In this document: in pieces, positions 7,187-57,592 of the stretch
How the letters are laid out: every line of letters begins with the position of its first letter
Position numbering within the stretch: position 1 is the first letter of the stretch
NCBI GenBank assembly: GCA_000004985.1
Contig: GG738890.1
Reading direction: 5' to 3' (one strand)
Length of the DNA stretch: 64,000 nt
From: Naegleria gruberi
Taxonomy: Eukaryota
The notes under the pieces: generated by a model
The model's input: the letters and a program-made list of their open reading frames with translations, nothing else
Told to the model about the DNA's origin: nothing
Database searches by the model: none
Made by a program: the position numbers and the translations under genes

Positions 7187-7574
7187 ATTATCGTTGACTG
7201 GATAATGGATCAAATAAATATTGTACGAGTAGAAGTAGCCTACTTTGATTTGTTTTTTTTGATTTTTTAATGTGATCAAAGTTCATTCCCAAATGCTGCT
7301 TGCAACAAAAACTCCCGCCAAAACCGTTCTTGCTACAGTAAGAATCTAGATCCATCCTTTGATATACTTTTGGTTGACCAAAATAACTTGTTGTGTCATG
7401 TTCTCCTTTAAAAAAAATGAAACAACGCAAACAACGAGTTGTTGTTGGCAAAAAGACAAAAATTTGTGATTTGAATGACGACATGTTCCGAGTAATTTAT
7501 CAATTTCTGGTCCATAATTGAAAGAAGGTTTTGTTAGACAATGAGAACTTGTAAATATCAACAATGTCCAGAAA

Positions 7575-11715: not shown

Positions 11716-11727
11716 TTGCGCGCGCAA
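11716..11727. promoter_or_regulatory. 12-bp perfect GC palindrome TTGCGCGCGCAA (E2F-site-like, TTTGCGCGC) ~140 bp upstream of the Q/N-rich gene start
   Basis: read directly; resembles a palindromic E2F/DP site TTTSGCGC; conspicuous in an AT-rich spacer. Confidence 0.25.
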
Positions 11728-15952: not shown

Positions 15953-16025
15953 GCCCCGCTAGCTCAGTCGGTAGAGCGTTGGACTTTTAATCCAACGGTC
16001 GTGGGTTCGAGCCCCACGTGGGGCG
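15953..16025 (+). tRNA. tRNA-Lys (anticodon UUU)
   Basis: 73-nt cloverleaf: acceptor GCCCCGC/GTGGGGC (one G-U), D-arm TAGCTCAGTCGGTAGAGC, anticodon loop CTTTTAA, T-arm GTGGGTTCGAGCCCCAC, discriminator G; no intron, CCA not encoded. Confidence 0.9.
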
Positions 16026-28936: not shown

Positions 28937-31172
28937 TTATTGATAGGCAGGGTTTTGGTTCATTACCTTAACAAATTTACGTCCTTGATCACTATTATTG
29001 TTATTGGTTGTTTCATCATCACCACCAAAATCAAGGGTTCTCTTTACACCCCTCTTTGAAATATCACTATTATTGATCACTGACGATGTCGATTCACGAT
29101 TAGGTGTTGTCGATATTTGATCAAAGTGTTTCTTTGTACTATTTGTTCCAAATTCATAAAGTGCTTTTGTTCTTGGTGTCAAAAGAAGGGTTGTATGATA
29201 ATTATCTTGATGTCTCATTGGTGATAGTAAACTGTTCTTGGAATAGTTAGACTTTCGTGGAGAGAGAACAAAGTTAGGTGCAATTTTGGTTTTTGTGAAA
29301 ATTTCAACATATGGCATTTCTGGTCTATCAAGTGCTGCACCTGAAGTCTTATCGAGAATGAATCCTTTAACAGATGGAATATATACCAAGTTATAGAATT
29401 TGACAATATCTCCCAAATCACCTTCTTTGTCTAATGGTACTTGCCAAAGAATTTTACCAATTTCGACTGGCGATATCATTCTTATATTTTCGCATATAAT
29501 TCTATAGTTATAAATAATATCTTTAAATGAAATACGCATTCTATTCACCTTATTACAAATAGCATACATGCTACACATGATTATATGATCAACATGTCTG
29601 CTAACCATCAGACCTCTAGCTTCATTCAATACATAATACACTGTGTGCCACACTTCTTCCATAAGATCCATTGATATTATCATTGGTTCCTCAGAGTTAC
29701 TTTGTTGTGTTTGGTTAAAGTGATAACATAATTCTTGAATTCTTCTGGAGACTAGTTTGTACATTTTTCTGAAAAAGAATAGAACAGAATATGAACCCTT
29801 TGGAGCTGATTGTGGTTGTTGTTTTCTTGAGGCCATTGGGCTATACATTCCAAAGGATTCAATATTTGAATTTCTGTTTGGAGTTTCATTTCCAGGTTTT
29901 GGTGGTTGTGGAACAACACTTGTACTAAGTTTGGAATACAGCACAGAGTTCTTCTTCCAGGCTAATGAGTCCAATAACACTTCTTCTATTGATTTAAATT
30001 GACGTTTCAGGGCACTGTTTAGCCATGTGGCATTTTGGACAAAACTTTCGAGAACTATCGATAATTCAAATGGTTCTAATACAAACTCATTGAGTAATAC
30101 TTGGAGGTCAATGGTATCTTTTGAATTGTAGGCGAATGAAACGCATTCAATAGAACAAATTGTTAAAGATCTGTGGAAGTTTTCGTTTGTGAGGAGAGTT
30201 GAAAAATTAGCAGTGCCACTTAGTCTTTTTTCTTCGCCTTGGAGCATATGTTTCAAGGTACCATAGTAAATTTTCATTATTTCCTGTTTTCTCTTTTCCT
30301 TATTAAATAATAATAGTGATTCAAAGTTAACTTTGTCAACCAAGCTCTTAAGTCTGTTTTCTATTGTGGATGTTTGATCTATATTACAGGATTTAAAGTA
30401 GCCTAGTAAAGTTTCATCTGGTGAGCTAGAAAGACCTTTTGTAGACTCTTCAATAAGCTGTATAACAAGAAGACTTGCTTGTAATGGAGTTTGGGATGTT
30501 GCAGTAAAGTGTCCTGGAGATCTTAAAGGGGATCGGAATGGATCGTTATGTTGTGTTGGTTTAGGTGGATTGAGTTGATAAACTGGTGCAGAACTGATTT
30601 TTGAAATGTCACCAATAAGATTGATATCATTTCTGTAGAGGAAAATTCTTTCATCAAAACCTAACGATCCCAAGGTTAAATCTTCATCCTTATCAAACAA
30701 CATATTCAATTTAGAGAGTGAATCAATATTGTTAACAAAATCTGAAAGGTTTTCAATTGTTAACTTTGAAAGGGTTGTTCTAATATATTCATCATATCTT
30801 GAATCTAATTTATCCTTTGAGATATTGCAAATAGAAAATAATTCTTCAATTGTTTCGGATAGTCTAGAGTTTTGTGATGCTTTCCACATTGAGATCATAA
30901 AATTAATCAACAAGTTTACACTTTCTGTAAAATCCAATAATGAAGAAGGTAAATGTCTAGCAAGAAGAACCAATATTATCCAACCAGCCTTAAAGTTATC
31001 CATTTGCAAGTTTGGAGTAATTACTTCTTGGAAACATTCTTGGTATTTCTCAAAAAGACAATGGCAAAGAACTAACTTCTTTTGAACCTTTTGGAGAACA
31101 CTATAGCAAGTGGTTGATTCGAATTGTAATGATACCATGTTATTATTCAATAATTCAAACAATTCTACCAAA
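28937..31172 (-). CDS. RB-like: retinoblastoma-like pocket protein, exon 3
   Basis: pocket B signature DHIIMCSMYAICNKVNRMRISFKDIIYNYR (Rb [28 protein letters not shown]); cyclin-fold A/B regions; starts at a TTG codon, so it is an internal exon. Confidence 0.75.
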
Positions 31173-31214
31173 CTTGATGAATGTTGTTAGAAATATCAAT
31201 TTGATAATACTCAC

Positions 31215-31390
31215 TTCATAGAAAAAGATCTGATATTGACTAAACTTCCAACAGATACAGAACTGTCAATCTTTAAAGAAAATTTGTTAAGATCAATCAT
31301 TTGCTCATCAGTAAATTTATCATCCTTTGAATTTTCTAATCTTGATGCTATAAACAAGGAACAAAATGCTAAATATGCTTGTCTATTCGG
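31215..31390 (-). CDS. RB-like: retinoblastoma-like pocket protein, exon 2
   Basis: 176-nt exon between two 42-nt introns (GTAAGT..TACTAAC..ACAG and GTGAGT..CAAG); skipping either intron hits in-frame stops. Confidence 0.6.
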
Positions 31391-31432
31391 CTGTAATATC
31401 GGTTAGTAAAATACTAACACTTTTCTACTTAC

Positions 31433-31714
31433 ACCAAACTCTAAAACCTGAGAAAGAGAAGAACATTTTTGGTATATTAATTTGGCTCTGTTGATTAATA
31501 AATCGTTATATGATACTTTTAACTCTTGGCAAAGTTGTACGAGTATAATGCTAATATCTCCTGTTGCGTCCAACTTTGCATATTGCGGAGTATTGTCTTG
31601 GTTTCTGTATGATTCTTGTTGTTGAAAAATTGGCTTGTGTTCATCGTAGTGATCATTCGTGTGGTCTGATGATACTCCACCTTGTGGCAAAAAGTCTCGA
31701 TGATGATTAGACAT
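31433..31714 (-). CDS. RB-like: retinoblastoma-like pocket protein, exon 1
   Basis: N-terminal LCQELKVSYNDLLINRAKLIYQKCSS resembles the Rb N-domain ([27 protein letters not shown]). Confidence 0.65.
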
Positions 31715-32002
31715 TTTTTATGATGAAAAAATAGAAAATTGAGCGCCAACTTTTAAAAAAGGCGGGAAGGATATCACATACAAAGCAAAGGTGGCAAATT
31801 GAGTGTTGTGATCACTTTGAGTGAATAGCTTAACTTGTTGTATAATCATCATTTAATTGTTTCAATATTATGATAAATTCCTTAGTAGGTTTAAGACTAC
31901 AGCAATTATCTATGAATTGTACATTCGAAAAAGTTATCTCTTTGAAAAAAAGCAAAGAGACTCTTGATCTGTATTAAAATTGGCGGAGAAACATAAAAAA
32001 GA

Positions 32003-32221
32003 ATGTTCAGTAACTCACCCAACTTCAATCACCACCCACATCCTCCTGAAAATGAGGTTGGTGACCACCAACAAGAAATTCCGAACAATGACTTTGATGA
32101 TATTGATATAGAGGCTAAAAAAGAGCCAATTAAAGTTTGTATAAGGATACGACCCCTAAATGCAAAAGAAAAAAAGAGAGGAGATGAACTTGTTGTTGAT
32201 TTTGATGATTTTTCAATTGGA
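32003..32221 (+). CDS. kinesin motor protein, exon 1
   Basis: IKVCIRIRPLNAKEKKRGD start of the kinesin motor domain; GTAAGT donor at 32222. Confidence 0.8.
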
Positions 32222-32268
32222 GTAAGTAATTCATCACAATGATTGGAGGTTTGGAACTATGTTTAAAG

Positions 32269-32445
32269 TTTAATCCTAAAATTTATAAATCAAAAGGGAG
32301 TGGTGTTCGAGAAAAAGCATTCACCTTTGATTGTTGTTTTGGACCAAACAGTACTCAGGATGATGTATTCTCGGAAAGTGGTTTGACAACCTTATTAAAA
32401 TATGCAATTGATGGTTATTCATCAACAATTTTTGCATACGGTCAG
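32269..32445 (+). CDS. kinesin motor protein, exon 2
   Basis: KAFTFDCCFGPNSTQDDVF...IFAYGQ; 47-nt intron before it, 39-nt GTAAGT..ATAG intron after it. Confidence 0.8.
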
Positions 32446-32484
32446 GTAAGTAAAGGATTGACAACCAATCAACAATTATAATAG

Positions 32485-33993
32485 ACTGGCTCTGGAAAAA
32501 CATATACAATTATTGGAAATGAGGAAGATTCTCCTGGAATATTACAGAGAGCATCAATGTTTATTTTTGACTATATTGCTCATATTACAGCAAAGCAAGA
32601 GGAAGCACAAATTAGTATTAAAACTAGAGCATCTTGTTTGGAAATATATCAGGAGACTGTAAATGATTTACTGAATACCAGCTCTAAAAATTTACCAGTA
32701 CGATGGAGCAATAGAGATGGTTTTTTTGTTGAAAACTTGTGTGTTGTAGAAGTGGACAATTTGCAGGAATTAATGACAGTTCTTAATGAAGGAATTTCAA
32801 ATAGAAAAGTAGCTTCACACGAATTGAATAAGGATTCTTCAAGAAGCCATTCAATTTTCACAATACAATTTGAAGTTACAACTTCAGATGTAAACGATGG
32901 ATTTGAATCAAAAAAATATGGATCTATTAGATTTGTGGATTTGGCTGGTTCAGAAAAGTTGAAAGTGTCAAAATCAAAATCAGTCTATGAGACTTCGAGT
33001 ATCAACAAGTCTTTATTAACCCTCGGAAAAGTAATTAGTGCACTAAGTTCCCCAAAAAAAGAAACCCCTTACGTTCCTTTTAGAGATAGTAAACTCACGA
33101 AATTGTTGATGGATTCCCTAGGTGGGGAGGCAAAAACAATGATGATTGGTTGCATTACACCATCTTCTCACTATGCAGAAGAAACTCATAGAACATTGAC
33201 TTATGCTAGCCGAGTTAAAAAAATCAAAAACATTCCTGTCACAAAAATTGACCCAAAGGAGAAATACATAATGAAATTGAAAGAAGAAATTAAGAGTCTA
33301 AGAGATGAACTAGCAGTTTACAAGACCAAATCTGTTTCATCTACTCCTTCAACCAAAGTGAGAACAATAGTCTCTCGATCCGACTATAGAGCAGCAGTAA
33401 TAGAATTTCCAAGAGTTGAAAGAAGAAGGGTTTCAACAAAGCATCCAGAAGCAGATCAAGTTTTATTCGAACCAAAACTTCCATTTATTGAAAAGAAAAG
33501 AAAGGATGATAGAGCAGCTACGGGTTTTACTAAAATAATTGAAAGTAATGAATCTGGAAGAGATGAAGAAGAAGAGCATGAAAAAAGAAAGGAAATCAAT
33601 CAGTCGATTCAAAGTCTTAAAGGTCTTTTGGAAGAAGAAAGGCAAATCAATCTTGAAAAGATACCTCAATTAAAAGCCAAAATTCGTCTCTTGGCAGAAG
33701 ACAATAAGAGGTGGAAGAGAATTGTTAGGAGAAATATGGACTTTGACTCTGAGGAATACGATAAGATTAAATTGGAAAATAAGATTTTAAAAAAGTTTTT
33801 GGAAGAGAGTGGAATTCCAAACCCTTTACAAGATTTGAAAAATTATTTACCACCTTCATTGGAAGAAGATCATGAACTAGATAGTTTATCTGATAAGGAT
33901 GGAAAGGAAAGCAGAATTAGCGATATTTCTGATGTTTATTCAGATCCTTCTGAAATGAATTTGGTTTCCTGCAAGGATGAAGAAGACTATTAA
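32485..33993 (+). CDS. kinesin motor protein, exon 3 (motor core plus coiled-coil tail)
   Basis: P-loop TGSGKTYT completed across the splice (AYGQ|TGSGKT); SSRSHS switch I, DLAGSE switch II, LINKSLLTLGKVISAL, HVPFRDSKLT-like YVPFRDSKLTKLL. Confidence 0.85.
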   Translation, partial: TGSGKTYTIIGNEEDSPGILQRASMFIFDYIAHITAKQEEAQISIKTRASCLEIYQETVNDLLNTSSKNLPVRWSNRDGFFVENLCVVEVDNLQELMTVLNEGISNRKVASHELNKDSSRSHSIFTIQFEVTTSDVNDGFESKKYGSIRFVDLAGSEKLKVSKSKSVYETSSINKSLLTLGKVISALSSPKKETPYVPFRDSKLTKLLMDSLGGEAKTMMIGCITPSSHYAEETHRTLTYASRVKKIKNIPVTKIDPKEKYIMKLKEEIKSLRDELAVYKTKSVSSTPSTKVRTIVSRSDYRAAVIEFPRVERRRVSTKHPEADQVLFEPKLPFIEKKRKDDRAATGFTKIIESNESGRDEEEEHEKRKEINQSIQSLKGLLEEERQINLEKIPQLKAKIRLLAEDNKRWKRIVRRNMDFDSEEYDKIKLENKILKKFLEESGIPNPLQDLKNYLPPSLEEDHELDSLSDKDGKESRISDISDVYSDPSEMNLVSCKDEEDY

Positions 33994-34685
33994 GCTGTTT
34001 TTTTAGTGTATCCACTTTTCACACATTTGGATTGATACTCTACAGTAGATTCTACTCCTTCATTTGAGTGGAAACACAAATGATTGGATACGAATGACAA
34101 ACTATCCAGTATTGGTATCACTTTTGGAACTAGAATCAAAGAGGTAACATAACTCCAAATTGTTCCTGTAATCAATCCTACAGATACACCCACGAGTACT
34201 TGAGGAATAGTATGATAATGCATTGCAATTCGTGAGTAGGCCACTAGACCTGCCACTGAAAAGAGTGAAATCCTTGCAATATTTCTCCAAAAACTAGTTC
34301 TTACTTTAAACCAGCATAAACAAGTGCATGCAAAGAAAAACATAAATTGACTATGAGATGATGGCATTCCAAAATGTTCCACTAACTCTGGTGTATCCAC
34401 AGAAACATTCCTAAATTTAGCAACATAGATATTGGCTGGTCTATCCTGTGCAAATGTATGTTTCAGAAAATCATTCATCAATTCATTGACAAGTAATCCG
34501 ATCATCAAGAACAATGACTGATATTCTCTATTCACAAAAACTACTACAACAATTGCTGCTACAATAAATATTGGTAACAAGGCACACAATGCATAAATTA
34601 AAGATAATAAATTTCCCTTCTCATACACAACAAAAGTGAAACTAAATGCCTTGATGATGGCTTCTGCTTCCGAAACTGACGACAT
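33990..34685 (-). CDS. DOLPP1-like: dolichyldiphosphatase (PAP2 superfamily, DOLPP1/Cwh8-like)
   Basis: PAP2 motifs KxxxxxxRP (KHTFAQDRP), PSSH (MPSSHSQFMFFF), SRxxxxxHxxxQ (SRIAMHYHTIPQ); multiple TM helices; 3' end overlaps the kinesin stop by 4 nt, convergent. Confidence 0.75.
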   Translation of the reverse strand: MSSVSEAEAIIKAFSFTFVVYEKGNLLSLIYALCALLPIFIVAAIVVVVFVNREYQSLFLMIGLLVNELMNDFLKHTFAQDRPANIYVAKFRNVSVDTPELVEHFGMPSSHSQFMFFFACTCLCWFKVRTSFWRNIARISLFSVAGLVAYSRIAMHYHTIPQVLVGVSVGLITGTIWSYVTSLILVPKVIPILDSLSFVSNHLCFHSNEGVESTVEYQSKCVKSGYTKKTA

Positions 34686-34983
34686 TTTTTAATAATATTA
34701 AATTATAGATAATATCTATCTAATGTTCTCCTCTATCACAAGACATCATTCATCTGATTGTTTATTTCAATACAACTCATCATCCAATCGAAGTAGTTTT
34801 ATCTATAAATCAGCAACATCAAGTACGATAAGCATTCTGCTGTGCTTTTCAATCAACAAAAAATAAAGCCTCAATAGAAAGTGATACTACAACATCAAAC
34901 CTTTAATATTTCTGATCCGAATAATACAAGATTTTCAACCAAAGAAACAGATAATTAATAGATCATTATTGTAAATAATAATT

Positions 34984-35019
34984 ATGGATACAAAAGGAAC
35001 TCCATTAGTGATAGATAAT
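34984..35019 (+). CDS. ARP1: actin-related protein Arp1 (centractin), exon 1
   Basis: MDTKGTPLVIDN; GTAGGT donor; 52-nt intron. Confidence 0.75.
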
Positions 35020-35071
35020 GTAGGTTTTCAAAAAGAAAAATATAATAAGGAAAATTTAAATCAATTAATAG

Positions 35072-35136
35072 GGATCTGGTCTTATTAAAGCAGGATTAGC
35101 TGGTGATGAAATTCCAAATTATGTATTTAATAATTA
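35072..35136 (+). CDS. ARP1: actin-related protein Arp1 (centractin), exon 2
   Basis: GSGLIKAGLAGDEIPNYVFNN(Y); 43-nt GTAAGT..GATAG intron follows. Confidence 0.75.
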
Positions 35137-35179
35137 GTAAGTTTATTTGAGGAAACAAACGGGGTATTTACAATGATAG

Positions 35180-36242
35180 TGTTGGATCGACGAAACATGT
35201 CCGAGTTATGCCAGTGGCTGGACCCAAATATGATTTTTGTGTTGGAAAAGTAGCAGAGGAGAAGAGAGGAATTTTAAAACTGAAATATCCAATGGAACAC
35301 GGAGTTGTTACTGATTGGAGTGCTATGGAACGAGTTTGGGATTATTTATATGCTTGTTTAATGGATAAAGATACAGGTCTAGGTGAAACATTTAAAAGAG
35401 AAGACAGTCCTGTTCTTTTAACAGAAGCACCTCTCAATCCTAGAAAGAATAGAGAAAAGGCAGCTGACATTTTCTTTGAATCTTATAATGTTCCTAAATT
35501 ATTTATTTCTCTTCAAGCAGTTTTATCATTGTATGCTTCGGGATCAATGACAGGTGTTGTATTGGATAGTGGTGATGGTGTGACTCATTGTGTTCCAATT
35601 TATGATGGTTTTGCTATTCCCAATGCAATCACCAGAATTGACGTTGCAGGAAGAGATATTACCAATTACTTGCAATTGTTGCTGAGGAAATCAGGATATA
35701 ATTTCCATACCTCTAGTGAAATTGAAGTTGTAAAAAGTATTAAGGAGAGTGATTTAATGTATGTAGCAGCAGTGTACGAAAAGGAAATGATCATGGATGA
35801 GGAGAAGGGAATGCTTGACCCTAAACCTTACAAGTTGCCTGATGGTTCAATAATTCAACTTGGATCTGAAAGATATATGGCTCCAGAAATATTATTCAAA
35901 CCATACTTGATTGGATTGGAATATATGGGTGTTCATGAATGCGTACTTCGTTCTATTCAAACATCTGATTTGGATATTAGAAAAGATTTGTACTCTAACA
36001 TATTCTTTGCTGGTGGATCAACACTGTTTGATGGATTTTGTTCAAGAATGCTTAGTGAATTGAAGAAATCAGCTCCAAAAGACGTTCCCTCTCTCAGAAT
36101 CTCAGCTCCTAACGAAAGGGCCTATACAACATGGCTTGGTGGTTCCATTTTAGCTTCACTTCCTTCCTTTAGCGATATGTGGATTACCAAAAATGATTAT
36201 GAAGAACATGGCTCTTCAATAGTTCACAAAAAAACATTTTAA
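35180..36242 (+). CDS. ARP1: actin-related protein Arp1 (centractin), exon 3
   Basis: near-colinear with vertebrate Arp1: [73 protein letters not shown]...HKKTF. Confidence 0.9.
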
Positions 36243-36335
36243 AATTGTACAAATGTAAAAATACAATATTGTTTATTATTCAAATTTAATAATAACAATT
36301 AATTGAAATAATTTTCAATTTATCGTTACAGTAAT

Positions 36336-36733
36336 TTACAAAATTAAGCAACCCTTCTTCTTCTTTTCTGAAGGAGCCTTCTTTGTTTTGTTTGTGGCTT
36401 CAGCAGTCTTGCTACCCTTTTCCTTTCTAATTTCTCTGACCAATTCAAAGAAGGAGTTTTCAACATTAGTTCTAGTCTTGGCAGAACCTTCAAAGAAAGG
36501 AATGCCCCATTCATCAGCCTTATTCTTTCCTTCAGCAGTTGATACTTGTCTTTCGCTTTCCAAATCGCACTTGTTACCTATCATACACATTGGAACTCTA
36601 TCCTTATCCTTAACTCTCAAAATTTGATCTCTGAAAGTGTTCAATTCTTCTAAGGATCTCTTTTCTACAATGCTGAAAACGAGCAAAAATCCTTGCCCAG
36701 ATCTCATGTATTGGTCTCTGAGAGCAGCATATT
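36336..36733 (-). CDS. Ras-subfamily small GTPase (RasG-like), exon 3
   Basis: (E)[15 protein letters not shown]...MIGNKCDL...EGSAK... C-terminal CAAX box CLIL; the 5' boundary is ambiguous by 1 nt (see findings). Confidence 0.75.
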
Positions 36734-36828
36734 CTATTATAATAATAATTAAAATTATTTGCTATTATTTTTGAAAATATTTACCTTCCTATGAAACGGG
36801 TTAGAATTTCAATTTTTAAAACACTTAC

Positions 36829-36977
36829 TTGACCAGCAGTATCGAGAATATCCAAGAAACAAGTTTCAGTATCAACAGTAACTTGCTTACGATAGCTGTC
36901 TTCAATAGTTGGGTCGTATTCTTCAAGGAAATGGCCTTGAATTAATTGGATTGTAAGAGCAGATTTACCGACACCAC
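36829..36977 (-). CDS. Ras-subfamily small GTPase (RasG-like), exon 2
   Basis: [49 protein letters not shown]; GTAAGT donor. Confidence 0.8.
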
Positions 36978-37081
36978 CTGTTTTAATAATGTATTATAAT
37001 TCGTTATTTGTTATTTATAAATAATATATTGGTATTAAGGTTAATGTTTTTTCAATGTCTTAACTACGTACCACCACCAAC

Positions 37082-37115
37082 AACAACAAGCTTGTATTCA
37101 GTCATTTTATTCTGT
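37082..37115 (-). CDS. Ras-subfamily small GTPase (RasG-like), exon 1
   Basis: MTEYKLVVVGG(G); GTACGT donor; 94-nt intron. Confidence 0.8.
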
Positions 37116-37365
37116 TATGTATTAATGTTATTTTTTTTATGTTTTCCAACAGCCTTAATTACTTCTGCTTTTAAGGGTGCCGGTTGTAAACGTTTGTAAG
37201 TCTCCAAAGACGCGGGCGTTTGTTGTGAAAGACAAGCACACAACGTTGCTCGTTAGTATGTCTTAGAAGTTCTGTGGAATTTCCTAGTAACATTGTGTGT
37301 TGTTCTCTCTGTAGCAGTAATAAAATTTGAGGCTATGAGTGTACCTCATGTTCGTTCATCTCCTC

Positions 37366-38699
37366 TTATATTTGTTCGGTGGTAAATGTATGCCTTTTTA
37401 GAATGGTGTTCAAGGCATGTGATTCGGTATCCAATTCTAATAAATCAAATGCTGCAATAATCTTTTTGATGGTATCTTGATAGCATTCCTCCCACTCACA
37501 TTCTGAGAATGCAGTAACAACTACTTCACCAGTTTCAATGAAATATTCTTGGACATTGACTCCACTTCTAAGAAATGCTTCAAGATTAATATTTTCTACA
37601 AAGATAGATAGTGTGCTTAATATTTGCTTCTTGAGTGTCTTGATATACTTGTACTCTGAGAATTGAGCAGGTGGATTGTCTGACGAAAGTTCGTTGATGG
37701 AATCAATCAAGCAACGCCATACTCTAAAATTGTTCATTGAACTACCGTAATCTTTTGTTAAAAGAGAAAGTGCTAGAACTGCTTGAATCCTCACTTTGAA
37801 GTTTTCATCTGAAGAAATCCTTTCACACAACATGTTTACAATTTCATCGATTGTTTGAATGGCTATGTTTGTGTTGCCAATCAAATTGCCCAAAGCATAG
37901 CAAGTATTCCACCTTGACTTAACAGAAGATCCGCTGGAAATAAGAGCGCTTGAGAGTGTTTGAAGTAACACTTGTTCTACAGTAGTTAGGTTTGTTGAAG
38001 TCTCTCCTTTTCCTTCCTTGGAAGTACGAACAAAATAAGATACCCCTTCTTGTTGTACGTGGTTGTTCAAAAGCTCTCGGTCAGCAAAGCTGGCAATATT
38101 ACCTAACGCTCTTACAGCATTACAAAGAACCTTATCATTGTCGTGACATGAGCTTAAACTAGAAATTAGAACAGGAATGACAAGCTCTAAATTGCTTCTC
38201 AAATCAGAGGATCTCAATGCATCACATAGGTTTGCAAAGGACCACGAAGCTCTAATTCTTACATTAAGAGATGAATCGCTTAACATATCCTGGAAATATT
38301 TGAGAGACTTGCTCATGAATTGTAAATTGTTTTGAAGTTTTCCAAACAATACAAACACTCCAACGGTACGACATGCAGATGATTTAACATTTGCATTTTC
38401 GTCATTCATACTTGAAAATACTAAGGAAATAATTTTTTCTGACAATTGTTCTCCGAAAGAGTCAAAGGTAGATGGAACAATATTAGAAAATATTGAAACA
38501 GCAGCAGACCTGATGGACTGATTAGAATCTTGAAGTGCATGAGCAAGAACCATATCAGTTATGCTCTCCCATACACTTTCATCAATTTTGAGTGTGTTAA
38601 ATCCTTCTACTGGTTTCTTGAAAGAAACAGCAGGTATCTTTGATTCACTGAACGGTGAGGTAAAATTGTTGACAATTTGAATAACTGTAAGACGAAGAG
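37366..38699 (-). CDS. HEAT/ARM-repeat protein, exon 6 (last)
   Basis: repeated ..VR..A..AL.NL.. HEAT-like motifs (NVRIRASWSFANLCDAL, NFKVRIQAVLALSLL); 43-nt GTAAGT..CAG intron upstream. Confidence 0.55.
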
Positions 38700-38742
38700 C
38701 TGTTGAAAGAAATTGTAAATAAAAATAAATCTTTCAACTTAC

Positions 38743-39124
38743 TTTGGTCATTGTGATTCAAACCAATCCTAATCTTTCTCAAAATAATCCTCCAATTATC
38801 CCACAGTAGATCTGGATAGTTTTTGGCAATATTGGCCAAAACTTGTGCAGCTTCTGTTCTTATGACATAGACATACTCTTCGGATAAATATTCTATCAAG
38901 AGTGGAATAATACTCAACTTGGAGTTCCTTAGAATTGCACCAACCTCACTTAGAGGTTCCTTGGTTCCAAATAATGTAGCCAAACATAAAAATGATTGAT
39001 TTTGAACTGTCTTGTCTACTTGTGAAGAATTGATAAGACCAACCAGAATTTCTGAAATGTTTGTAAGGATAATATCACAATTCATCTTATTGTAAGGAGT
39101 ATTTTCGATTAGTAAAGAAAGTGT
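38743..39124 (-). CDS. HEAT/ARM-repeat protein, exon 5
   Basis: KVRTEAAQVLANIAKNY HEAT motif; flanked by GTAAGT donors and a TTATAG acceptor. Confidence 0.55.
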
Positions 39125-39172
39125 CTATAATTTTTGCAATGAGAATTGATATGAATGTAATGTCATACTTAC

Positions 39173-39618
39173 TCTGATAGAAACTGGAAGAATAGGAAGA
39201 GACTCTTTTTTGATTGATAATATTAATGTGTAGTGTAATTCTTTGATTATCGATGCAAGAGTTTGAGAAAATGATGTAAATGCAGACTTTGTCTTCATTT
39301 CACTTGCTTGAGCAAGGTAAAGTTCACTATTCTCCAGCATTGAAGCTAACGCTTGAGCTGCTGCTAATCTAACCTTTGAGGATGGATCAAAGAGTAAAAC
39401 TGTAGATAAAGTCTGCTTAGATTTTGGATTTTGATTTGTACTATCATTGTCTGAGAATAAAATCTTCCACTGAGCGAATAACGACTTGAAATCCTTCTTA
39501 GCCAATGTGTTGATAAGTTGGAGTGCTGCTATTCTAATCTTTACAGCATCTCTATTTATATGTGGAGAATCTGAATCTGAATAATCTGAATCTGATGCAA
39601 ATCCTGAGTCTATTGATA
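39173..39618 (-). CDS. HEAT/ARM-repeat protein, exon 4
   Basis: SKVRLAAAQALASMLE HEAT motif; acceptor AATTTAG. Confidence 0.55.
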
Positions 39619-39653
39619 CTAAATTCAATAACATGATCAAAATAAAAACATAC

Positions 39654-40140
39654 CCTTCTTTGGATTTGTAGAAGATTGAGCAGGGAAAAATATTGTTCCA
39701 AAAAGCATTAGTTTCGAAATGTGAGAAACTATCTTTTCAATATCTGGCAAATGAATCTTGTCACCAGTTTGAATAACACCAGAAAGCAATTTAAGAGAAG
39801 AGTAAAGGACTTTTTGGGCATTTTCTACTGCTATTCCTTTTGTAAGCATTTCCAAATTTTGCAATGTAGAAGAGTAAATTGTCTTGCAATATGGTGATAA
39901 CACTTCTGGGTTTGGTTTTGAGAATAAATTCACAAGGCAATTGATAGATTGTTTCCTTACTTCCAAGTCCGATACAGAAACCTTCATTTGTGGTATTACA
40001 ACTGTTAAAATCGACTTGTAGGTTTCAGAAGAGCATTTGGAGGCCATATCATAAAGAATAAAACTCAATGTCCTCAAACAATCAGCTAATAACCATGTAG
40101 ATGATGATGAAATAAATTGTGTAAACACAGATATTAAATC
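39654..40140 (-). CDS. HEAT/ARM-repeat protein, exon 3 (5' boundary uncertain)
   Basis: an in-frame junction requires the acceptor GAGAG| at 40141; the stronger TTTTCAG at 40155 would shift the frame. Confidence 0.4.
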
Positions 40141-40210
40141 CTCTCCCCTCTTTTCTGAAAATTGAAACTATCCAAAGGTCAACCATTATAATATGATTAA
40201 TTCAACATAC

Positions 40211-40324
40211 TTCTTGTTTGATTGTCAATGTAGAAATCAATTGGCATAATTTCGAAATTAGCAAATCTTGTGATTCAGCCGATTGTAAATATTGAGCAAT
40301 TCTCACAACGACATCCAAACAAAA
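40211..40324 (-). CDS. HEAT/ARM-repeat protein, exon 2
   Basis: FCLDVVVRIAQYLQSAESQDLLISKLCQLISTLTIKQE; GTATGT donors on both sides. Confidence 0.45.
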
Positions 40325-40368
40325 CTAATTATTGATTTTTCTAATTTTCAATTAAAACTAAAACATAC

Positions 40369-40614
40369 TTCAGTGTCAATTCCTCTAACAGGATAAGAAA
40401 TTGAGTTTAAAGACTCCAAAATATCCTCAACAGATTTTGTTGTATTAACATTTGTTGTATCAAGTGATTGCAATAATTCTTTTGCTTCCGACCACTGTTT
40501 TGGAATAATTGTTTTATCCGATTGTATTGATGATGAAAATTTAGCACTATTATAACTTCTTCTAGTTGATGAAGAAGAATTTGGCTTATTATTCTTCTTT
40601 GGTGAATGTAGCAT
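40369..40614 (-). CDS. HEAT/ARM-repeat protein, exon 1
   Basis: ATG at 40614; MLHSPKKNNK...VRGIDTE then a GTATGT donor. Confidence 0.5.
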
Positions 40615-40693
40615 ATTGTTTTGTAGGAATAGAACACACCAACAGAAGACAAAGATAATAAATTATTTTACTGGTAATGATGTACTAGTATTT

Positions 40694-40701
40694 TTTCGCG
40701 C
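40694..40701. promoter_or_regulatory. E2F-like motif TTTCGCGC in the 256-bp divergent promoter shared by the HEAT-repeat gene (-) and the PP4c gene (+)
   Basis: ttttttcgcgcc read directly; matches the E2F consensus TTTSSCGC. Confidence 0.25.
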
Positions 40702-40870
40702 CTTCTGTTGTAAGACAAAGCCACTGTTAGCCATTAAAGAGCATCTAAAAAAAGACCAAGGCAAACTCGCAAAAAAAATATCTGGTCATCGGTTGTTTTT
40801 CTTCTCTTCTCTTTTAAACTTGGACGCGGATAGTTTTTTTTCATCATCACAATAATCAATTGATACAAAG

Positions 40871-41020
40871 ATGACCTCACCCTCTGATTTGGATAGACAA
40901 ATTGAAAAATTAAAACGTTGCGAGCTTATAAAAGAATCTGAAGTCAAGGCTCTCTGTCAAAAGGCTAAAGAAATTCTTATTGAAGAAGCTAACGTACAAC
41001 GTGTTTTTGCCCCAGTTACC
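40871..41020 (+). CDS. PPP4C-like: serine/threonine protein phosphatase 4 catalytic subunit, exon 1
   Basis: [50 protein letters not shown] vs human PP4c [50 protein letters not shown]. Confidence 0.9.
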
Positions 41021-41061
41021 GTAAGTATTATAGTCATCATGATTATTAAAAGTCATCATAG

Positions 41062-41248
41062 GTATGCGGTGATATTCATGGTCAATTCTATGATCTGAAA
41101 GAACTTTTTAAAGTAGGAGGTGATATTCCTGATACAAATTATTTATTTATGGGTGATTTTGTAGATAGAGGATTTTATAGTGTAGAGACCTTCTTGCTTT
41201 TGCTTGCATTGAAGGTAAGATATCCTGACCGTATAACACTCATCAGAG
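41062..41248 (+). CDS. PPP4C-like: protein phosphatase 4 catalytic subunit, exon 2
   Basis: [63 protein letters not shown]; 41-nt intron before it. Confidence 0.9.
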
Positions 41249-41301
41249 GTTTGTATTATTCTTGTAAATTGAAAAATTCCTAACCAACAATATTATTTTA
41301 G

Positions 41302-41568
41302 GTAATCACGAAAGTAGACAAATTACACAAGTTTATGGTTTCTATGATGAATGTCTTAGAAAATATGGTAGTGTTAACGTTTGGAGATATTGTACTGAAA
41401 TATTTGACTACTTGAGTTTGTCAGCTTTAATTGAAGATAAAGTATTCTGTGTCCATGGAGGTCTTTCGCCTTCTGTTACTTCATTAGATCAAATTCGTAA
41501 AATTGATAGAAAACAAGAAGTCCCACATGATGGTCCAATGTGCGACTTGCTTTGGTCTGATCCAGATG
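41302..41568 (+). CDS. PPP4C-like: protein phosphatase 4 catalytic subunit, exon 3
   Basis: [22 protein letters not shown]...CVHGGLSP...DLLWSDPD; preceded by GTTTGT donor, followed by GTACGT donor. Confidence 0.9.
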
Positions 41569-41638
41569 GTACGTTTTATTGATATTATTTCAAAATTTCT
41601 TAATCATTTATTGTTGTTGTGATTTTAATACTATTTAG

Positions 41639-41958
41639 ATATTGATGGGTGGGGATTGAGTCCAAGAGGTGCTGGTTATTTATTCGGTGGAGACGTCGTT
41701 ACTCAATTTAACCAAACTAACGGTATTGAACTCATTTGTCGTGCTCACCAATTGGTCATGGAAGGATACAAACACATGTTTAATGAAAGCTTAGTTACTG
41801 TTTGGTCAGCTCCAAACTATTGCTATAGATGCGGTAACGTTGCTGCCATTCTTGAATTGGATGAAAACCTGAAGAGGAATTTCAAAGTTTTCGAATCTGC
41901 TCCTCAAGAATCTAGAGGTATCCCAGGAAAGAAGCCAGCTCCTGATTACTTTTTGTAA
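41639..41958 (+). CDS. PPP4C-like: protein phosphatase 4 catalytic subunit, exon 4
   Basis: [18 protein letters not shown]...[14 protein letters not shown]...[20 protein letters not shown]...[14 protein letters not shown] (PP4-type C-terminus RGIPSKKPVADYFL). Confidence 0.9.
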
Positions 41959-42204
41959 ACAATATAACCTAGTATTAATATATAATTTTATGATGTATTT
42001 TAAAATTTGAATGTTTAACATTAAATAATATCTTTTCATTTAATACATTCTGTAACGAATCTTATGCCTTAAACGAACGGCTTAAGGAGGAGTAAACTAA
42101 ATGTTAAAAGCTGTAAGTGATTTGGCGCCTTCAAAAACCGTTAAATAATTGTTAACTTTGCATTTAAAACATAAAAAAAATACCCAAACGACCTTCTCCA
42201 AATC

Positions 42205-43530
42205 ATGATGTACCAAAGATCCCACTCTTTGGTGCTTGATGAAAATACCAATCCTATCACCATTGCCGACAAGGACCCTATCAAACCAATTTCCATCCAT
42301 CCAACTAAAGCCCCTATTAAAAAATCCATTAAAGATGACAATTCATCAGTTAGGACTGCTCTTTCTACCATCATGGCTCGTGTTAAGAATTTGAGAAAAC
42401 GACCTGGTGATGAGAAGAGAGTTGAACTCAAGAGACAAACTAGTGACTATATTACCACTTCCACTCATTATAATACTGTAAATAATCAAGAGAATAGAGA
42501 TCCACAACAACAAGAACAATCACTCAATACATCCACCACCTCCTCAACAGCAATAATTGAACAGGAACAACAACCACCATCCATTTCCAAATCATTGTCC
42601 ACATCATCCCTTCCAACAAGTACTTTATCTACTACTAGTAGTGTGAGTGAGGAATCCAAACCTACCACACCTCAAAAGAAGACTACAGACGAATTGACTT
42701 CTCCTGGTATTGATAAAGCAGATTCTGAAGATCCTCAGTCTTGTATCGAATATGTTAAAGATATTCATTCACATTATAAGAAGATTGAAAACAAATATAG
42801 AGCAGATCCAGCTTACTTGTCGAGACAACCTTTCATGAGACACAAGCATAGATTCACCATTGTGAATTGGATGATTGAAGTTCATCAAAAGTTTAGACTC
42901 AGTACTCCAACAATGTATTTGGCTGTAGATCTTTTAGATCGTTTCCTTTCGAAGAATGACATTAATTTGAATCATCTTCAATTATTGGGAGCTACCTGTA
43001 TATTTGTTGCTTCAAAGTATGAAGATCTTCAATATCCACTTTCTTCAGAATTGGTTAAGATTTCAATGAATTTATTTACTAAGGAAGATGTTCTGAAAAT
43101 GGAAAGACTCTTGCTGAGAGATTTGGATTTCAATATCACAGTTGCTACAGTATATCCATTCCTTAAGAGATATCTCAAATGTGCTAGATGTGACTTTAAT
43201 CAATTAGCTCTTGCCTATTACTTATCAGAATTGTCATTGTTAGAAGAGGCCTCTCTTTACTATCCTCCATCTCAAATTGCTAGTGCATGCATTTACGTTG
43301 CAGGAAGACTTTGTAATAAGAAGGATAGTTGGGATAGTGTTTTACAATACTATACTGGTTATTCTGAACAAGATATTGAGGCATGTGCTAGTGTAATTGT
43401 TAAAATTGCCAAAAAGTACAATACTAATGAGATTAAGACTTGTACAAGATCAAAATACTCTCAAGAAGAAAAGGCCAAGGTTGCTTGGATAGTAATGTCA
43501 TACTTTAACAATAGATCCAAAAAGGATTAG
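42205..43530 (+). CDS. B-type (mitotic) cyclin
   Basis: cyclin box MRHKHRFTIVNWMIEVHQKFRLSTPTMYLAVDLLDRFLS...LQLLGATCIFVASKYEDL; N-terminal destruction-box-like RTALSTIMA; second cyclin fold present. Confidence 0.8.
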   Translation: MMYQRSHSLVLDENTNPITIADKDPIKPISIHPTKAPIKKSIKDDNSSVRTALSTIMARVKNLRKRPGDEKRVELKRQTSDYITTSTHYNTVNNQENRDPQQQEQSLNTSTTSSTAIIEQEQQPPSISKSLSTSSLPTSTLSTTSSVSEESKPTTPQKKTTDELTSPGIDKADSEDPQSCIEYVKDIHSHYKKIENKYRADPAYLSRQPFMRHKHRFTIVNWMIEVHQKFRLSTPTMYLAVDLLDRFLSKNDINLNHLQLLGATCIFVASKYEDLQYPLSSELVKISMNLFTKEDVLKMERLLLRDLDFNITVATVYPFLKRYLKCARCDFNQLALAYYLSELSLLEEASLYYPPSQIASACIYVAGRLCNKKDSWDSVLQYYTGYSEQDIEACASVIVKIAKKYNTNEIKTCTRSKYSQEEKAKVAWIVMSYFNNRSKKD

Positions 43531-43730
43531 TCAAACATTCTAACTAGATCGTCACTAAAGGAATACTTTGTGACATAAATCGTAAATAAACAAATTACCT
43601 TGATAAACTTTGCATTGATTGAAATTAGTATTTTCTGAATTTAATGTTCTTAATATCTTCATCAACATGAAAGCTTTTCAACACTGTTCAACCAGGATGA
43701 GAGTAATGTTTCATGATAAAACAGAGAAGT

Positions 43731-44452
43731 TTAATCAACTATAATTCTATCTGTGTCCATAGGAATTTCAAACTCTTCAAGACAACTTGGATTGACGAAT
43801 TGCCTTGCCTTCATAAAATCATCAAACATTAATTCTCTTGGCATAATATTAGCCATAGATGTTTTGGATTTGATTTCTCTGTCAATTAATTCCTTAATAG
43901 GGAAGGATAAAGCTTTCTTACACAATTCTGTCAAGTCACTTCCACTGAAGAATTGAGTAGCATCAGCAAGCTTTTCAAAGCTGACAGTTGGAGAAACTCT
44001 TTCATTCTTGAGGAGCAATTTCAAGATTTGAATTCTGCTATTACGATCAGGGGCATCTATCTTGAATTGTAAAGGCATTCTTCTCAAAGCAGCTGTATCC
44101 AATTGAGATCTCAAATTGGTTGCGCCAATTACCATAACTTGATCACCATCAGATGTAGTTTCAAAACCATCCCATGCTGAAAGAATAATACTAATTCTTG
44201 CCTTTGATACTTCATGCATTTGATAACTGGCTTGTCTTGAAGGTAATAAACTTTCAATTTCATCAATGAAAATAATACATGGCTTGACTTTGGTGGCAAA
44301 ACTGAAGAGAGCTCCAACTAATTTCTCAGTTTCTCCATAAAGGAAATCAGATAAGAATTCTCTTTTAACATTTAAGAAGGCACAATTACATTCCTTTGCA
44401 ATAGCTTTAGCCAAACTTGTTTTACCAGTTCCAGGAGGGCCATAAAACAGAA
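43731..44452 (-). CDS. ATAD1-like: ATAD1/Msp1-like membrane-anchored AAA ATPase, exon 2
   Basis: Walker A (V)LFYGPPGTGKTSLAKAIA, Walker B CIIFIDEIESLL, second region of homology; 51-nt GTAAGT..TACAG intron. Confidence 0.8.
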
Positions 44453-44503
44453 CTGTATAAATTTTGAATTATTAAATAATCAATTGTTAATAAGGATACT
44501 TAC

Positions 44504-45161
44504 CTCCTTTTGGAAGCATTCTGAGTTTAATACTTGTTGAATCAGAGCTATTTCCTTCATAAATGTGTGGATATTTAAGTGGGAAACAAACAGATTCATA
44601 AATCTCCTTCTTTAATTTATCCATTCCTCCAATATCATCAAAATTATTATCCAAATCTTCAGGTAAAACTAAAAAGTCAGCTACAATTTTTTCATACTTA
44701 TTCAAATATCTTTCATATAAAGAAATGTAATAGCTGTCATCATCCTTTCTCGGATTTTCTAAATGTAAACACTTATGAATTAATTCTCCAATTTTTCTCT
44801 TTTTTCTCGGCAGTAAATTTGTACCTGTTTGTTTGTTGTTAGTATTCAGCAAATTTGATAAGAGTGGCATGAACAAATACTTTATCGATAAGAAGGTTAA
44901 TAGTAAAGTCAATCCAGTTTCAGAAAGAGAAAATATCAGCCTCGACAAACCAGAAGAGCCTCCACCACCAGATGAAGAGCTTCCTGTTGCCAATATTAAT
45001 TCCGTATTTCCATTATTATTAAATAAAACTCCAGCTGGTGAACCGCTACTACCAGTCGAATTATTATTTAAAGATGTATCACTTGATGATGACGATGAAG
45101 GTGTTGTTGTCGTTGAAGTCTGCTCACTCAGAGAGGACCATAAATCCCGTAAATAATTCAT
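44504..45161 (-). CDS. ATAD1-like: ATAD1/Msp1-like AAA ATPase, exon 1
   Basis: S/T-rich N-terminus, TM helix GLTLLLTFLSIKYLFMPLL, then YE..IA..LVLPEDLDNNFDDIGGMDKLKKEIYESVCFPLKYP. Confidence 0.75.
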
Positions 45162-55486: not shown

Positions 55487-56022
55487 GAAGAGGAGTTTTT
55501 AACGAATATTTTGCCATCCGATTTAATAAGTGGACATTTGGCATGGATTGAGATTGGTTTTGGAAGAGGAATTGGAATTGCTGATGACATCCGCTTTCCA
55601 ATAGCCATGGGATTCATCTATTGAGTCTGTGCAAACACTTCTCAACACATTTCCCGCGCTTATTTACTGTTAGCTTTTCAATCATGAAGCTGTGGTAAAG
55701 TATCACCAAACATATGTGTCACAGTAGAAATCTTAATAATAACGATTCAGCAGCATAAATGAACATCTTATTCCCAGAATGTCAATCTTGGTCTATCTTT
55801 GGATCTCTCCAAATTTCTTAATAAATAACAAAATATCTAAGGGAACCATCTCCCTTTTTAGTAATTGTACAATGTGAACTATTTACTGTGAATGAACTTG
55901 TTGAGAGATACAGATGTGATGAACCTGCACAACACACAGTTTTGTAAACTCATACAATGTAGTGAGATGTAGTGAGTGTTGTGGTTCTGATTCAAAATAT
56001 CATTATCTGATTATATTCTTCT

Positions 56023-56943: not shown

Positions 56944-57592
56944 TTTTTTGAATTTTGGTTATTAAAATCAAACTGGCACCTGACAGTTAAAAATAGGAGG
57001 GATGACGTAAGAGCAGATTTTTGTTGACCTGCCACAATAACCATTATTTTTGCTATTTCACATCAAACATTCTCGATTCATCCAATATTCAACAATCCCA
57101 AAAAGTTTTCTAACATGTTAATTAACATTAAAAGCTAATCATGCCTTAATAAATGCAACATAAGCGATTCTCCGAAACGGTAAAGATTCAAATACCCTTT
57201 TTTACCTTTAACAAACTCAGTAAATAAAACCAAAGAGAGAAACCATATCAAAATCCCATTAGGGCATTCACACATTCCTCCATAGTGGAATGGACTCTCT
57301 TCTAAATCACTTGAGGTTTTTGTCTCTGCGCGCAAGGTTGATATCCTGGAAGGATTCAATTGACAATGAATTGTTGTTGTTGAGGCCGATAACAACAGAG
57401 TAAGGACCTCATCAGTAATGATAACCTTGATTCAGAGTCAAAATCTAAAGGCTTCCTCTAGCGGATAGAGTTGCGCTGATGATGGTTGCGTGATGGTCCA
57501 CTTTATATTGAGGTTCAAATGGCCGGATTATCAGCAACGCTCTTGGATGCTTAAAAAAAACATCAGCAATACATTGCTTTTCTCACTTGAAA

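Follow-up and report, generated by a model that had tools for sequence, protein, structure and literature searches.

Known animal G2/M genes use CDE/CHR elements, the RB1 promoter has an E2F site, and the DREAM and Myb-MuvB complexes of plants and animals bring E2F-DP together with an Rb-like protein and Myb. The p107 (RBL1) promoter of human and mouse contains two tandem E2F sites that mediate both activation by E2F and repression by Rb/E2F, forming a feedback loop (Burkhart et al. 2010, PMC2891812), and the B-type cyclin promoters of plants share the MSA consensus (T/C)C(T/C)AACGG(T/C)(T/C)A, built on the Myb core AACGG (PMC5405339). For the heterolobosean Naegleria gruberi, the proteins of such a network—Rb, E2F, DP, an E2F7/8-type DEL, cyclins and CDKs—have already been catalogued (Medina et al. 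2016, eLife, PMC4862756), so that neither the Rb gene nor the trans-factors described below are new. A literature search returned no description of Naegleria cis-elements and no paper connecting Naegleria with MuvB. The new part is the cis-regulatory layer of the circuit and not its existence.

We analysed a 64,000-nt stretch of N. gruberi DNA, referred to throughout as the window, in which the coding sequence at 28937-31714 on the minus strand encodes a true Rb-family pocket protein. The spliced protein has 897 aa and comes from three exons (Table 1), and N. gruberi has no Rb-family gene besides this one. Pfam assigns pocket A to aa 381-568 (PF01858 RB_A, E=4.2e-45, full-length at 1-196/196) and pocket B to aa 616-755 (PF01857 RB_B, E=8.6e-25), and the top PDB structure matches are human RB (8e-30) and p107 (4e-28), in an alignment that spans A, the spacer and B. 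The RbN domain (PF11934/DUF3452) scored 16.4 bits in Pfam (E=0.0076), under the 26.3-bit cut-off, and a heterolobosean Rb profile aligned with the RbN+pocket chain 4elj across residues 62-505; the C-terminal tail gave no match in the PDB. Two motifs, LCQELKVSYNDLL in exon 1 and DHIIMCSMYAICNKV, correspond to residues 61-73 and 681-695 of the spliced protein. There are 13 CDK-type S/T-P sites, clustered in the linker between RbN and pocket, in the spacer of the pocket and in the C-terminal tail, and six residues followed by proline (S367, S371, T583, S790, S803 and T818) are invariant in 6/6 aligned Rb sequences from five species.

The gene structure departs from the public record. The public model has 733 aa, starts at MVSLQF and lacks exons 1-2 (164 aa); the NCBI entry 'retinoblastoma protein [Naegleria gruberi]' is 100% identical to our protein across 82% of its length, and the published NgruRB (P0001) is 100% identical to exon 3. 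Both introns are GT..AG, with the branch-like motifs tactaac in intron 1 and ttctaac in intron 2. The N-terminal 164 residues and both exon junctions, VLEFG/PNRQAYLAFCSL at intron 1 and SFSM/NLVELFELLNN at intron 2, are conserved in the N. fowleri and Willaertia magna orthologues. Judged by this conservation of the junctions, both 42-nt introns are real and the 897-aa model is better than the public one. An earlier sequence-only reading of this DNA, all of whose strings and coordinates are present in the window, had called an Rb-like gene with two 42-nt introns; the Pfam pockets, the RB/p107 structures and the conserved junctions all bear it out. The corrected model gains two exons, two 42-nt introns and 164 residues at the N terminus, which matters for phylogenies that used the truncated protein.

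Table 1. Features of the Rb locus and of the promoter elements discussed in the text, in window coordinates
Feature	Position	Strand	Remarks
Second composite copy CTCCCGCCAAAACCGTT	7312..7328	+	~130 bp upstream of ATG 7186 of a 698-aa minus-strand ORF; 7/8 E2F match at 7315
Palindrome TTGCGCGCGCAA	11716..11727		(GC)4 run flanked by TT/AA; 139 bp upstream of ORF start 11577
Rb exon 3	28937..31172	-	Includes stop codon; remaining RbN-like region, pockets A/B, spacer, C-terminal region with conserved S/T-P sites
Rb intron 2	31173..31214	-	42 nt, gtgagt...ttctaac...caag
Rb exon 2	31215..31390	-	Between the two 42-nt introns
Rb intron 1	31391..31432	-	42 nt, gtaagt...tactaac...acag
Rb exon 1	31433..31714	-	ATG at 31714; residues 1-94; conserved counterparts in N. 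fowleri (P0002) and in Willaertia (P0004)
Proximal E2F-like site GTTGGCGCT	31743..31749	-	35 bp upstream of Rb ATG; 7/8 consensus match
Distal E2F-like site CTTCCCGCC(TTTTTT)	31761..31769	-	54 bp upstream of Rb ATG; 7/8 match at 31762
E2F-like TTGGCGG	31980..31986	+	23 bp upstream of kinesin ATG (32003); 7/8 match
Exact E2F consensus TTTCGCGC(C)	40694..40701	+	Spacer between divergent HEAT/DUF4042 (ATG 40614, -) and PP2A-family PP4c-like (ATG 40871, +) genes
Composite TTTGGCGCC-TTCAAAA-ACCGTT	42121..42142	+	84 bp upstream of cyclin B ATG; exact E2F consensus plus Myb/MSA-type core (reverse complement AACGGTT)
B-type cyclin gene	42205..43530	+	Cyclin_N 8e-39, Cyclin_C 1e-25; NCBI 'cyclin B1-like protein'
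Exact consensus candidate TTTCCCGC(GC)	55650..55657	+	~165 bp upstream of Pyr_redox_2 gene (53690-55486, -)

The sequence-only reading had proposed that an Rb/E2F-type circuit could be mapped in this organism, and the E2F and DP homologues for such a circuit are present in the N. gruberi genome, together with DEL; we took the NgruE2F, NgruDP and NgruDEL sequences from the source-data FASTA of the same study (Medina et al. 2016, PMC4862756). The winged-helix DNA-binding domains of NgruE2F and NgruDP match the E2F4-DP2-DNA structure (PDB 1CF7) at 7e-25 and 3e-28, and in this alignment each has, residue for residue, the recognition helix of its human counterpart, E2F4 or DP2, which predicts the same CGCG-core specificity for the Naegleria pair, on sequence identity alone. 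NgruE2F ends in DDFMFEMESGEGVSDLFL, which we take to resemble the pocket-binding motif of animal E2Fs. If these proteins behave as their families do, hypophosphorylated Rb would bind the C-terminal transactivation motif of the E2F-DP heterodimer, E2F-DP would occupy TTTSSCGC-type sites at promoters that the bound Rb would repress, and phosphorylation by cyclin-CDK at the conserved S/T-P sites would free Rb. A switch of the kind found in animals and plants probably works in Naegleria too, as the conserved promoter motifs described below suggest.

For candidate sites we used the E2F consensus TTTSSCGC, as in Burkhart et al. 2010 (PMC2891812), and a relaxed form, TTSSCGS, that was chosen post hoc. 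In four heterolobosean genomes the Rb ATG is preceded, at a distance of 24-69 bp, by a tandem pair of E2F-like sites, at -54/-35 in N. gruberi, -43/-24 in Naegleria sp. L002, -46/-31 in W. magna and -69/-53 in L005. The proximal site has an equivalent in L002, W. magna (L001) and L005, and the distal site has counterparts in the same three: an identical CTTCCCGCCTTTTTT in L002, ATTGGCGCCTTTT in W. magna and ATCCCGCCTTTT, with one mismatch, in L005. A further sequence, L004, ends 41 bp before the Rb start codon and is uninformative for this comparison. Matches to TTSSCGS are concentrated here, with 2/2 of those in the 7.7-kb L002, 3/4 of those in the 14.4-kb L001 and 3/8 of those in the 64-kb window falling in the Rb promoter. 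The divergent gene on the other side of this promoter is a kinesin (motor domain 1.8e-67; its PDB matches gave no family assignment), and the head-to-head pairing of Rb and kinesin is retained in W. magna and L002.

At the position read as cyclin B, the Pfam cyclin domains agree with that call. Its promoter holds a composite in which an E2F-like core is followed, after 7-8 nt, by ACCGTT, and this arrangement is shared by the cyclin B orthologues of N. gruberi, N. lovaniensis, L009, L011 and W. magna, five promoters in all; the promoter of a W. magna cyclin paralogue has both motifs, ~40 bp apart. The only non-AT-rich 7-mers common to the cyclin B spacers are GCGCCTT and ACCGTTA. Across species the constant part of the E2F-like core is GCGCC/CCGCC: the T-run is gone in L009 (AATGGCGCC), and the N. 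lovaniensis position holds an off-register TTTGCGCC. AACCGTT occurs five times in the window, and two of the five adjoin an E2F-like core. The second composite copy stands upstream of an ORF (5090-7186) that is lineage-restricted, with 4 relatives among 1.8 billion representatives and no Pfam or PDB match even at relaxed thresholds. A CHR-like TTCAAA in the N. gruberi cyclin B element was considered as part of a CDE/CHR pair and rejected, being absent in the other species.

The spacer between the HEAT-repeat and PP4c-like genes carries the 40694 site, which the sequence-only reading had listed as E2F-like. It is an exact consensus match, and two other Naegleria species, N. lovaniensis (L007:8410) and the one represented by L009 (at 8288), have an orthologous exact match, TTTGCCGC; it is the sole exact TTTSSCGC in the 21 kb of L007 and in the 15.6 kb of L009. 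The Pyr_redox_2 gene behind the exact match at 55650 has no evident cell-cycle link.

The conserved-promoter set comprises Rb in 4 genomes, cyclin B in 5 genomes plus the paralogue, and HEAT/PP4c in 3 Naegleria species, the promoters of E2F, DP, DEL, cyclin A and the G1/S targets MCM, PCNA and RNR lying outside the sample. In a sample of this size the motifs might be chance matches with no regulatory meaning. Exact TTTSSCGC occurs three times in the 64 kb (40694, 42121 and 55650) against 0.94 expected, and a count of at least three comes up in 7 of 100 shuffles; TTSSCGS is a post hoc relaxation; a GGCGCC box at 28823, 3′ of Rb, was dropped as a candidate, not being conserved in L002; and coding DNA yields chance matches of its own, such as the paired W. 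magna L008 matches at 5976 and 6018, rejected because they lie within a coding exon. Measured against dinucleotide shuffles of the 64-kb sample, non-ORF DNA has 3 matches to TTTSSCGC where 0.35 are expected (P=0.007) and 7 to TTSSCGS where 1.8 are expected (P=0.003), with no enrichment inside the ORFs of the window. An excess over shuffled sequence, on which the sequence-only reading had staked its motif, is thus present in the non-ORF DNA, but so is a general GC/CpG bias: CpG-containing GC pentamers as a class are enriched there (31 versus 6), and TT-flanked GC cores of other kinds match 2-5 times, versus 7 in the E2F register. Because of this general bias and the modest register contrast, the enrichment within the window is not specific; nor did we keep as an argument that all three exact matches lie outside ORFs, CpG-rich pentamers being intergenic in general. 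The enrichment over shuffles is modest, and the case for putative E2F-type elements rests on conservation. Orthologous promoters share the sites across 3-5 heterolobosean genomes, whose surrounding spacers otherwise have only AT-rich words in common, and both L002 matches and the single exact matches of L007 and L009 land in the predicted spacers. Set beside the non-ORF enrichment, this recurrence makes chance a very improbable account.

Alternatively, the conserved GC-rich boxes could be real cis-elements of another factor, such as a zinc-finger GC-box binder or a heterolobosean core-promoter/initiator factor, and only superficially like E2F sites. The over-representation of GC/CpG pentamers across non-coding DNA and the weak flank and register specificity within the window fit such a factor, as do the invariant part of the cyclin B element, which is GCGCC(TT) and not the TTT run, and the placement of sites at -24 to -84 from the ATG, where core-promoter elements are also expected. 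Yet the motif is present in only ~6/35 promoters of the window and so is not a general core element; the genes for Rb, a B-type cyclin, a kinesin and a PP4c-like phosphatase are among those that have it; TTTSSCGC or TTCCCGCCAAA-type E2F sites are matched exactly in several cases; and the N. gruberi E2F/DP recognition helices are those of human E2F4/DP2. We consider another factor unlikely. The best explanation, and in our judgement a likely one, is an Rb locus accompanied by conserved E2F-type promoter elements, with E2F/DP, or the E2F7/8-type DEL, reading those at Rb/kinesin, cyclin B and HEAT/PP4c.

Whether the palindrome at 11716 belongs with these elements is doubtful. The sequence-only reading had counted TTTGCGCGC within it as E2F-like, but this string is absent from the exact TTTSSCGC matches and fits only if one mismatch is allowed (TTgCGCGC). 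A role as a functional E2F site, or as a symmetric site for E2F/DP or DEL, would accord with the CGCGCG core and TT/AA flanks of TTGCGCGCGCAA, with the related off-register TTTGCGCC that N. lovaniensis has at the orthologous position before cyclin B, and with the recurrence of TTGCGCGC at 57328 and of TTTGCGCC at 62401. Against this, the palindrome fails the consensus, its (GC)4 dinucleotide run could come from slippage, and the Q/N-rich gene downstream has no recognisable function. The circuit drawn earlier from promoter sites keeps its candidate at 40694, that at 11716 is improbable, and the candidates that appear strongest, the Rb tandem and the cyclin B TTTGGCGCC, were not on its list.

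Taken together, the comparisons suggest, at the level of sequence, that selection maintains E2F-type elements in a lineage far removed from animals and plants. They would add cis-regulatory support, besides gene presence and absence, for an ancestral complex Rb-E2F (possibly DREAM-like) network, and they supply concrete candidate sites in an organism with which genetic work is difficult. A broader proposal, which we put forward tentatively and hold somewhat less probable than its negation, is that the cis-logic of the Rb network is conserved in Heterolobosea (Discoba), in the form of autoregulatory E2F sites in tandem at the pocket-protein promoter and an E2F+Myb composite of fixed spacing at B-type cyclins that would imply a DREAM or Myb-MuvB-like complex. 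If it is true, this promoter grammar would go back to the last common ancestor of eukaryotes, and the cell-cycle regulons of Naegleria could be read from sequence alone.

The closest parallel to the Rb promoter is RBL1 (p107): the Rb genes of Naegleria and Willaertia have tandem sites 15-19 bp apart, at most 70 bp from the ATG, an arrangement that suggests an autoregulatory feedback loop like that of mammalian p107/RB1. Unlike in RBL1, several of the heterolobosean predicted sites are only 7/8 matches (GTTGGCGC, CTTCCCGC and ATCCCGCC), and the promoter is common to Rb and the head-to-head kinesin gene. The cyclin B promoters resemble those governed by plant MSA/MYB3R in that all five orthologues have AACGGTT 7-8 nt from the E2F-like core, which points to control of a DREAM or Myb-MuvB-like kind, or of a plant E2F+MSA-like kind. 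To our knowledge, an E2F+Myb composite of fixed spacing is not a canonical arrangement in plants or animals.

The identity of the gene previously read as a retinoblastoma-family pocket protein is established by its 897-aa spliced product, which contains both protein strings quoted in that sequence-only reading, matches Pfam RB_A (4.2e-45) and RB_B (8.6e-25), with a sub-threshold match to RbN/DUF3452, and finds the human RB and p107 pockets as its top solved structures; the RbN part of chain 4elj is also aligned by a profile made from heterolobosean Rb proteins. The protein is 100% identical to the public 'retinoblastoma protein [Naegleria gruberi]' (P0001), followed by relatives in N. fowleri (68%), an environmental Naegleria (69%) and Willaertia magna (53%), a more distant heterolobosean-like sequence (37%) and then animal RBL1 (~26%). 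The window accordingly comes from the nuclear DNA of N. gruberi. The public model, which also serves as NgruRB in Medina et al. 2016 (PMC4862756), has 733 aa, starts at MVSLQF and is without exons 1 and 2. These exons add 164 residues that are kept in N. fowleri and W. magna over both junctions (VLEFG/PNRQAYLAFCSL and SFSM/NLVELFELLNN), and the two proposed introns, with their exact length and GT..AG ends, are therefore correct and improve on the annotation: as judged from this alignment, the conserved full-length product is the 897-aa form. Six S/T-P sites in the linker, pocket spacer and C-terminal tail are invariant in all six aligned Rb sequences (five species), a layout matching that expected under CDK control.

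Features of the window discussed in the text (~32% G+C overall)
Feature	Position	Strand	Remarks
ORF	2989-4947	minus	652 aa
ORF 5090-7186	5090-7186	minus	698 aa; lineage-restricted
Composite CTCCCGCCAAAACCGTT	7312-7328		E2F-like + Myb core as in cyclin B promoters; ~130 bp upstream of ORF 5090-7186
TTSSCGS match	7315		E2F-like; upstream of unknown ORF
Palindrome TTGCGCGCGCAA	11716-11727		
tRNA-Lys (UUU)	15953-16025	+	Rfam 70.9 bits
Rb gene	28937-31714	minus	ATG 31714, stop 28937
Rb introns	31432-31391 and 31214-31173	minus	42 nt each, GT..AG; tactaac or ttctaac branch-like motifs
TTSSCGS matches GTTGGCGCT and CTTCCCGCCTTTTTT			E2F-like; 35 and 54 bp upstream of Rb ATG
TTSSCGS match			E2F-like; 23 bp upstream of divergent kinesin ATG
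Kinesin to AAA ATPase genes	32003-45161		
Exact E2F consensus TTTCGCGC	40694-40701	+	HEAT/PP4c spacer
Myb-core copies AACGAACGGCTT	42080-42100		upstream of cyclin B
Exact E2F consensus TTTGGCGC	42121	+	84 bp upstream of cyclin B
Cyclin B gene	42205-43530		
Oxidoreductase gene	53690-55486	minus	pyridine nucleotide-disulphide; no obvious cell-cycle role; downstream of 55650 consensus
Exact E2F consensus TTTCCCGC(GC)	55650-55657	+	~165 bp upstream of oxidoreductase gene
Off-register form TGCGCGCAAG	57326-57335		reverse complement contains TTGCGCGC
Off-register form TTTGCGCC	62399-62406		

The partners needed for the proposed Rb/E2F circuit are encoded in the genome: Medina et al. 2016 (PMC4862756) give the sequences of NgruE2F, NgruDP and NgruDEL in their source-data FASTA files, so that the proteins of the circuit are not new to the literature. 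NgruE2F and NgruDP have intact DNA-binding domains, which align to the E2F4–DP2–DNA structure 1CF7 at 7e-25 and 3e-28, respectively, and whose recognition helices are identical to those in 1CF7; canonical CGCG-core specificity is therefore expected.

Two E2F-like sites precede the Rb ATG in N. gruberi, and two are again found upstream of each Rb ATG in W. magna (L001; ATTGGCGCCTTTT and the palindromic TTTTGGCGCCAAAT), the environmental Naegleria (L002; CTTCCCGCCTTTTTT and, on the opposite strand, TTTTTTGGCGGGGAG) and a more distant genome whose Rb is 41% identical (L005, JAESGV010000063.1; ATCCCGCCTTTT and, on the opposite strand, TTTTGGCGC). The pairs lie at -54/-35 in N. gruberi, -43/-24 in L002, -46/-31 in W. 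magna and -69/-53 in L005. The head-to-head order of Rb and kinesin is kept in L001 and L002; L002 (7.7 kb) has no TTSSCGS match besides the two promoter sites, and of the four matches in L001 (14.4 kb) three are sites of the Rb upstream region.

The gene read as cyclin B is indeed a B-type cyclin, and we compared its locus among N. gruberi, N. lovaniensis (L007), two other Naegleria (L009 and L011) and W. magna (L008), together with a W. magna paralogue (L010). In all five orthologue promoters, ACCGTT stands 7-8 nt behind an E2F-like GC core (TTTGGCGCCTTCAAAAACCGTT, TTTGCGCCTTGAGAAACCGTT, AATGGCGCCTTGCACGACCGTT, ATTGCCGCCTTGTAAAACCGTT and CTTCCCGCCAAAAAGCAACCGTT, respectively); the paralogue has TTTCCCGCCAAAC, with ACCGTTA ~40 bp further upstream. 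Among the spacer 7-mers common to three Naegleria species, GCGCCTT and ACCGTTA are the sole non-AT-rich ones. AACCGTT, the reverse complement of AACGGTT, includes the Myb/MSA core AACGG (PMC5405339). The window has just five copies of it, and a second one that adjoins an E2F-like core lies upstream of ORF 5090-7186, whose protein has no Pfam or PDB match and only four relatives among 1.8 billion representatives; this ORF is a candidate lineage-specific mitotic gene. Further Myb-core copies stand upstream of cyclin B in N. gruberi and in W. magna (ACCCGTTAC, L008 ~9915-9925); plant G2/M genes typically have several MSA-like cores in one promoter.

The E2F-type site proposed for the divergent promoter between a HEAT/DUF4042 gene (left) and a PP2A-family catalytic subunit gene (right), whose N-terminus we take to be PP4c-like, is an exact TTTSSCGC and has exact counterparts, TTTGCCGC, at the same place beside the start of the HEAT gene in L007 and L009; neither locus (21 kb and 15.6 kb, respectively) has another exact match. 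The surrounding gene order, kinesin, PAP2, actin-like, small GTPase, HEAT/DUF4042, PP4c-like, cyclin B and AAA ATPase, is conserved in these three Naegleria, and the W. magna Rb and cyclin B genes share one 505-kb contig. Elsewhere in the window, the 652-aa ORF has a borderline match to the GEX2 N-terminal Ig-like domain (E=4e-6, 27.3 bits vs a 27-bit cut-off), which is curious because GEX2 is a plant gamete-attachment protein and, to our knowledge, no sexual cycle has been observed in Naegleria.

All three TTTSSCGC matches in the window fall in non-ORF DNA, which makes up 23% of it (dinucleotide shuffles predict 0.35; P=0.007), as do seven TTSSCGS matches (1.8 expected, P=0.003); only one TTSSCGS match is inside a coding region, and ORFs show no excess of the motif over shuffles. 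This enrichment is weakened because CpG-containing GC pentamers (SSCGS/SCGSS) are themselves strongly non-ORF (31 vs 6) and TT-flanked GC cores of other kinds have 2-5 matches, against 7 for the E2F register, so that the window statistics on their own are suggestive, not decisive. In this AT-rich genome, GC boxes as a class look to be a feature of promoters or intergenic DNA. The main rival, to which we give some weight, is that a different GC-box factor reads the conserved elements: GC boxes are generally intergenic here, and the T-run is not conserved throughout. Pure chance is unlikely because the sites recur across species.

The palindrome singled out by the sequence-only reading is present, but it holds no TTTSSCGC match and fits only as TTgCGCGC. 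This off-register form recurs twice in the window, and it occupies the cyclin B site of N. lovaniensis; the E2F-like element may tolerate such a variant, or the copies may be due to chance. The tRNA-Lys gene explains several GC-rich runs in its spacer, including an apparent CCCCACGTGGGG palindrome.

The evidence is read most simply as a canonical Rb–E2F/DP module with conserved E2F-type elements on the promoters of Rb itself and of B-type cyclin genes. E2F/DP or DEL would occupy these elements, Rb would repress the promoters, CDK phosphorylation would release that repression, and expression would be periodic. A literature search found no paper on E2F cis-elements in Naegleria or linking Naegleria with MuvB or DREAM, although its coverage was incomplete and this is absence of evidence only. 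What is new is a known kind of regulation seen in a distant lineage, together with a corrected Rb gene model, rather than a new kind of system. In mammals, the RB1 promoter carries an E2F site. The mammalian p107 promoter places tandem E2F sites on a pocket-protein gene (PMC2891812), an arrangement like the paired E2F-like sites of Naegleria Rb. The pairing of an E2F-type element with a Myb-type core at cyclin B recalls both the DREAM and Myb–MuvB complexes and plant E2F+MSA control.
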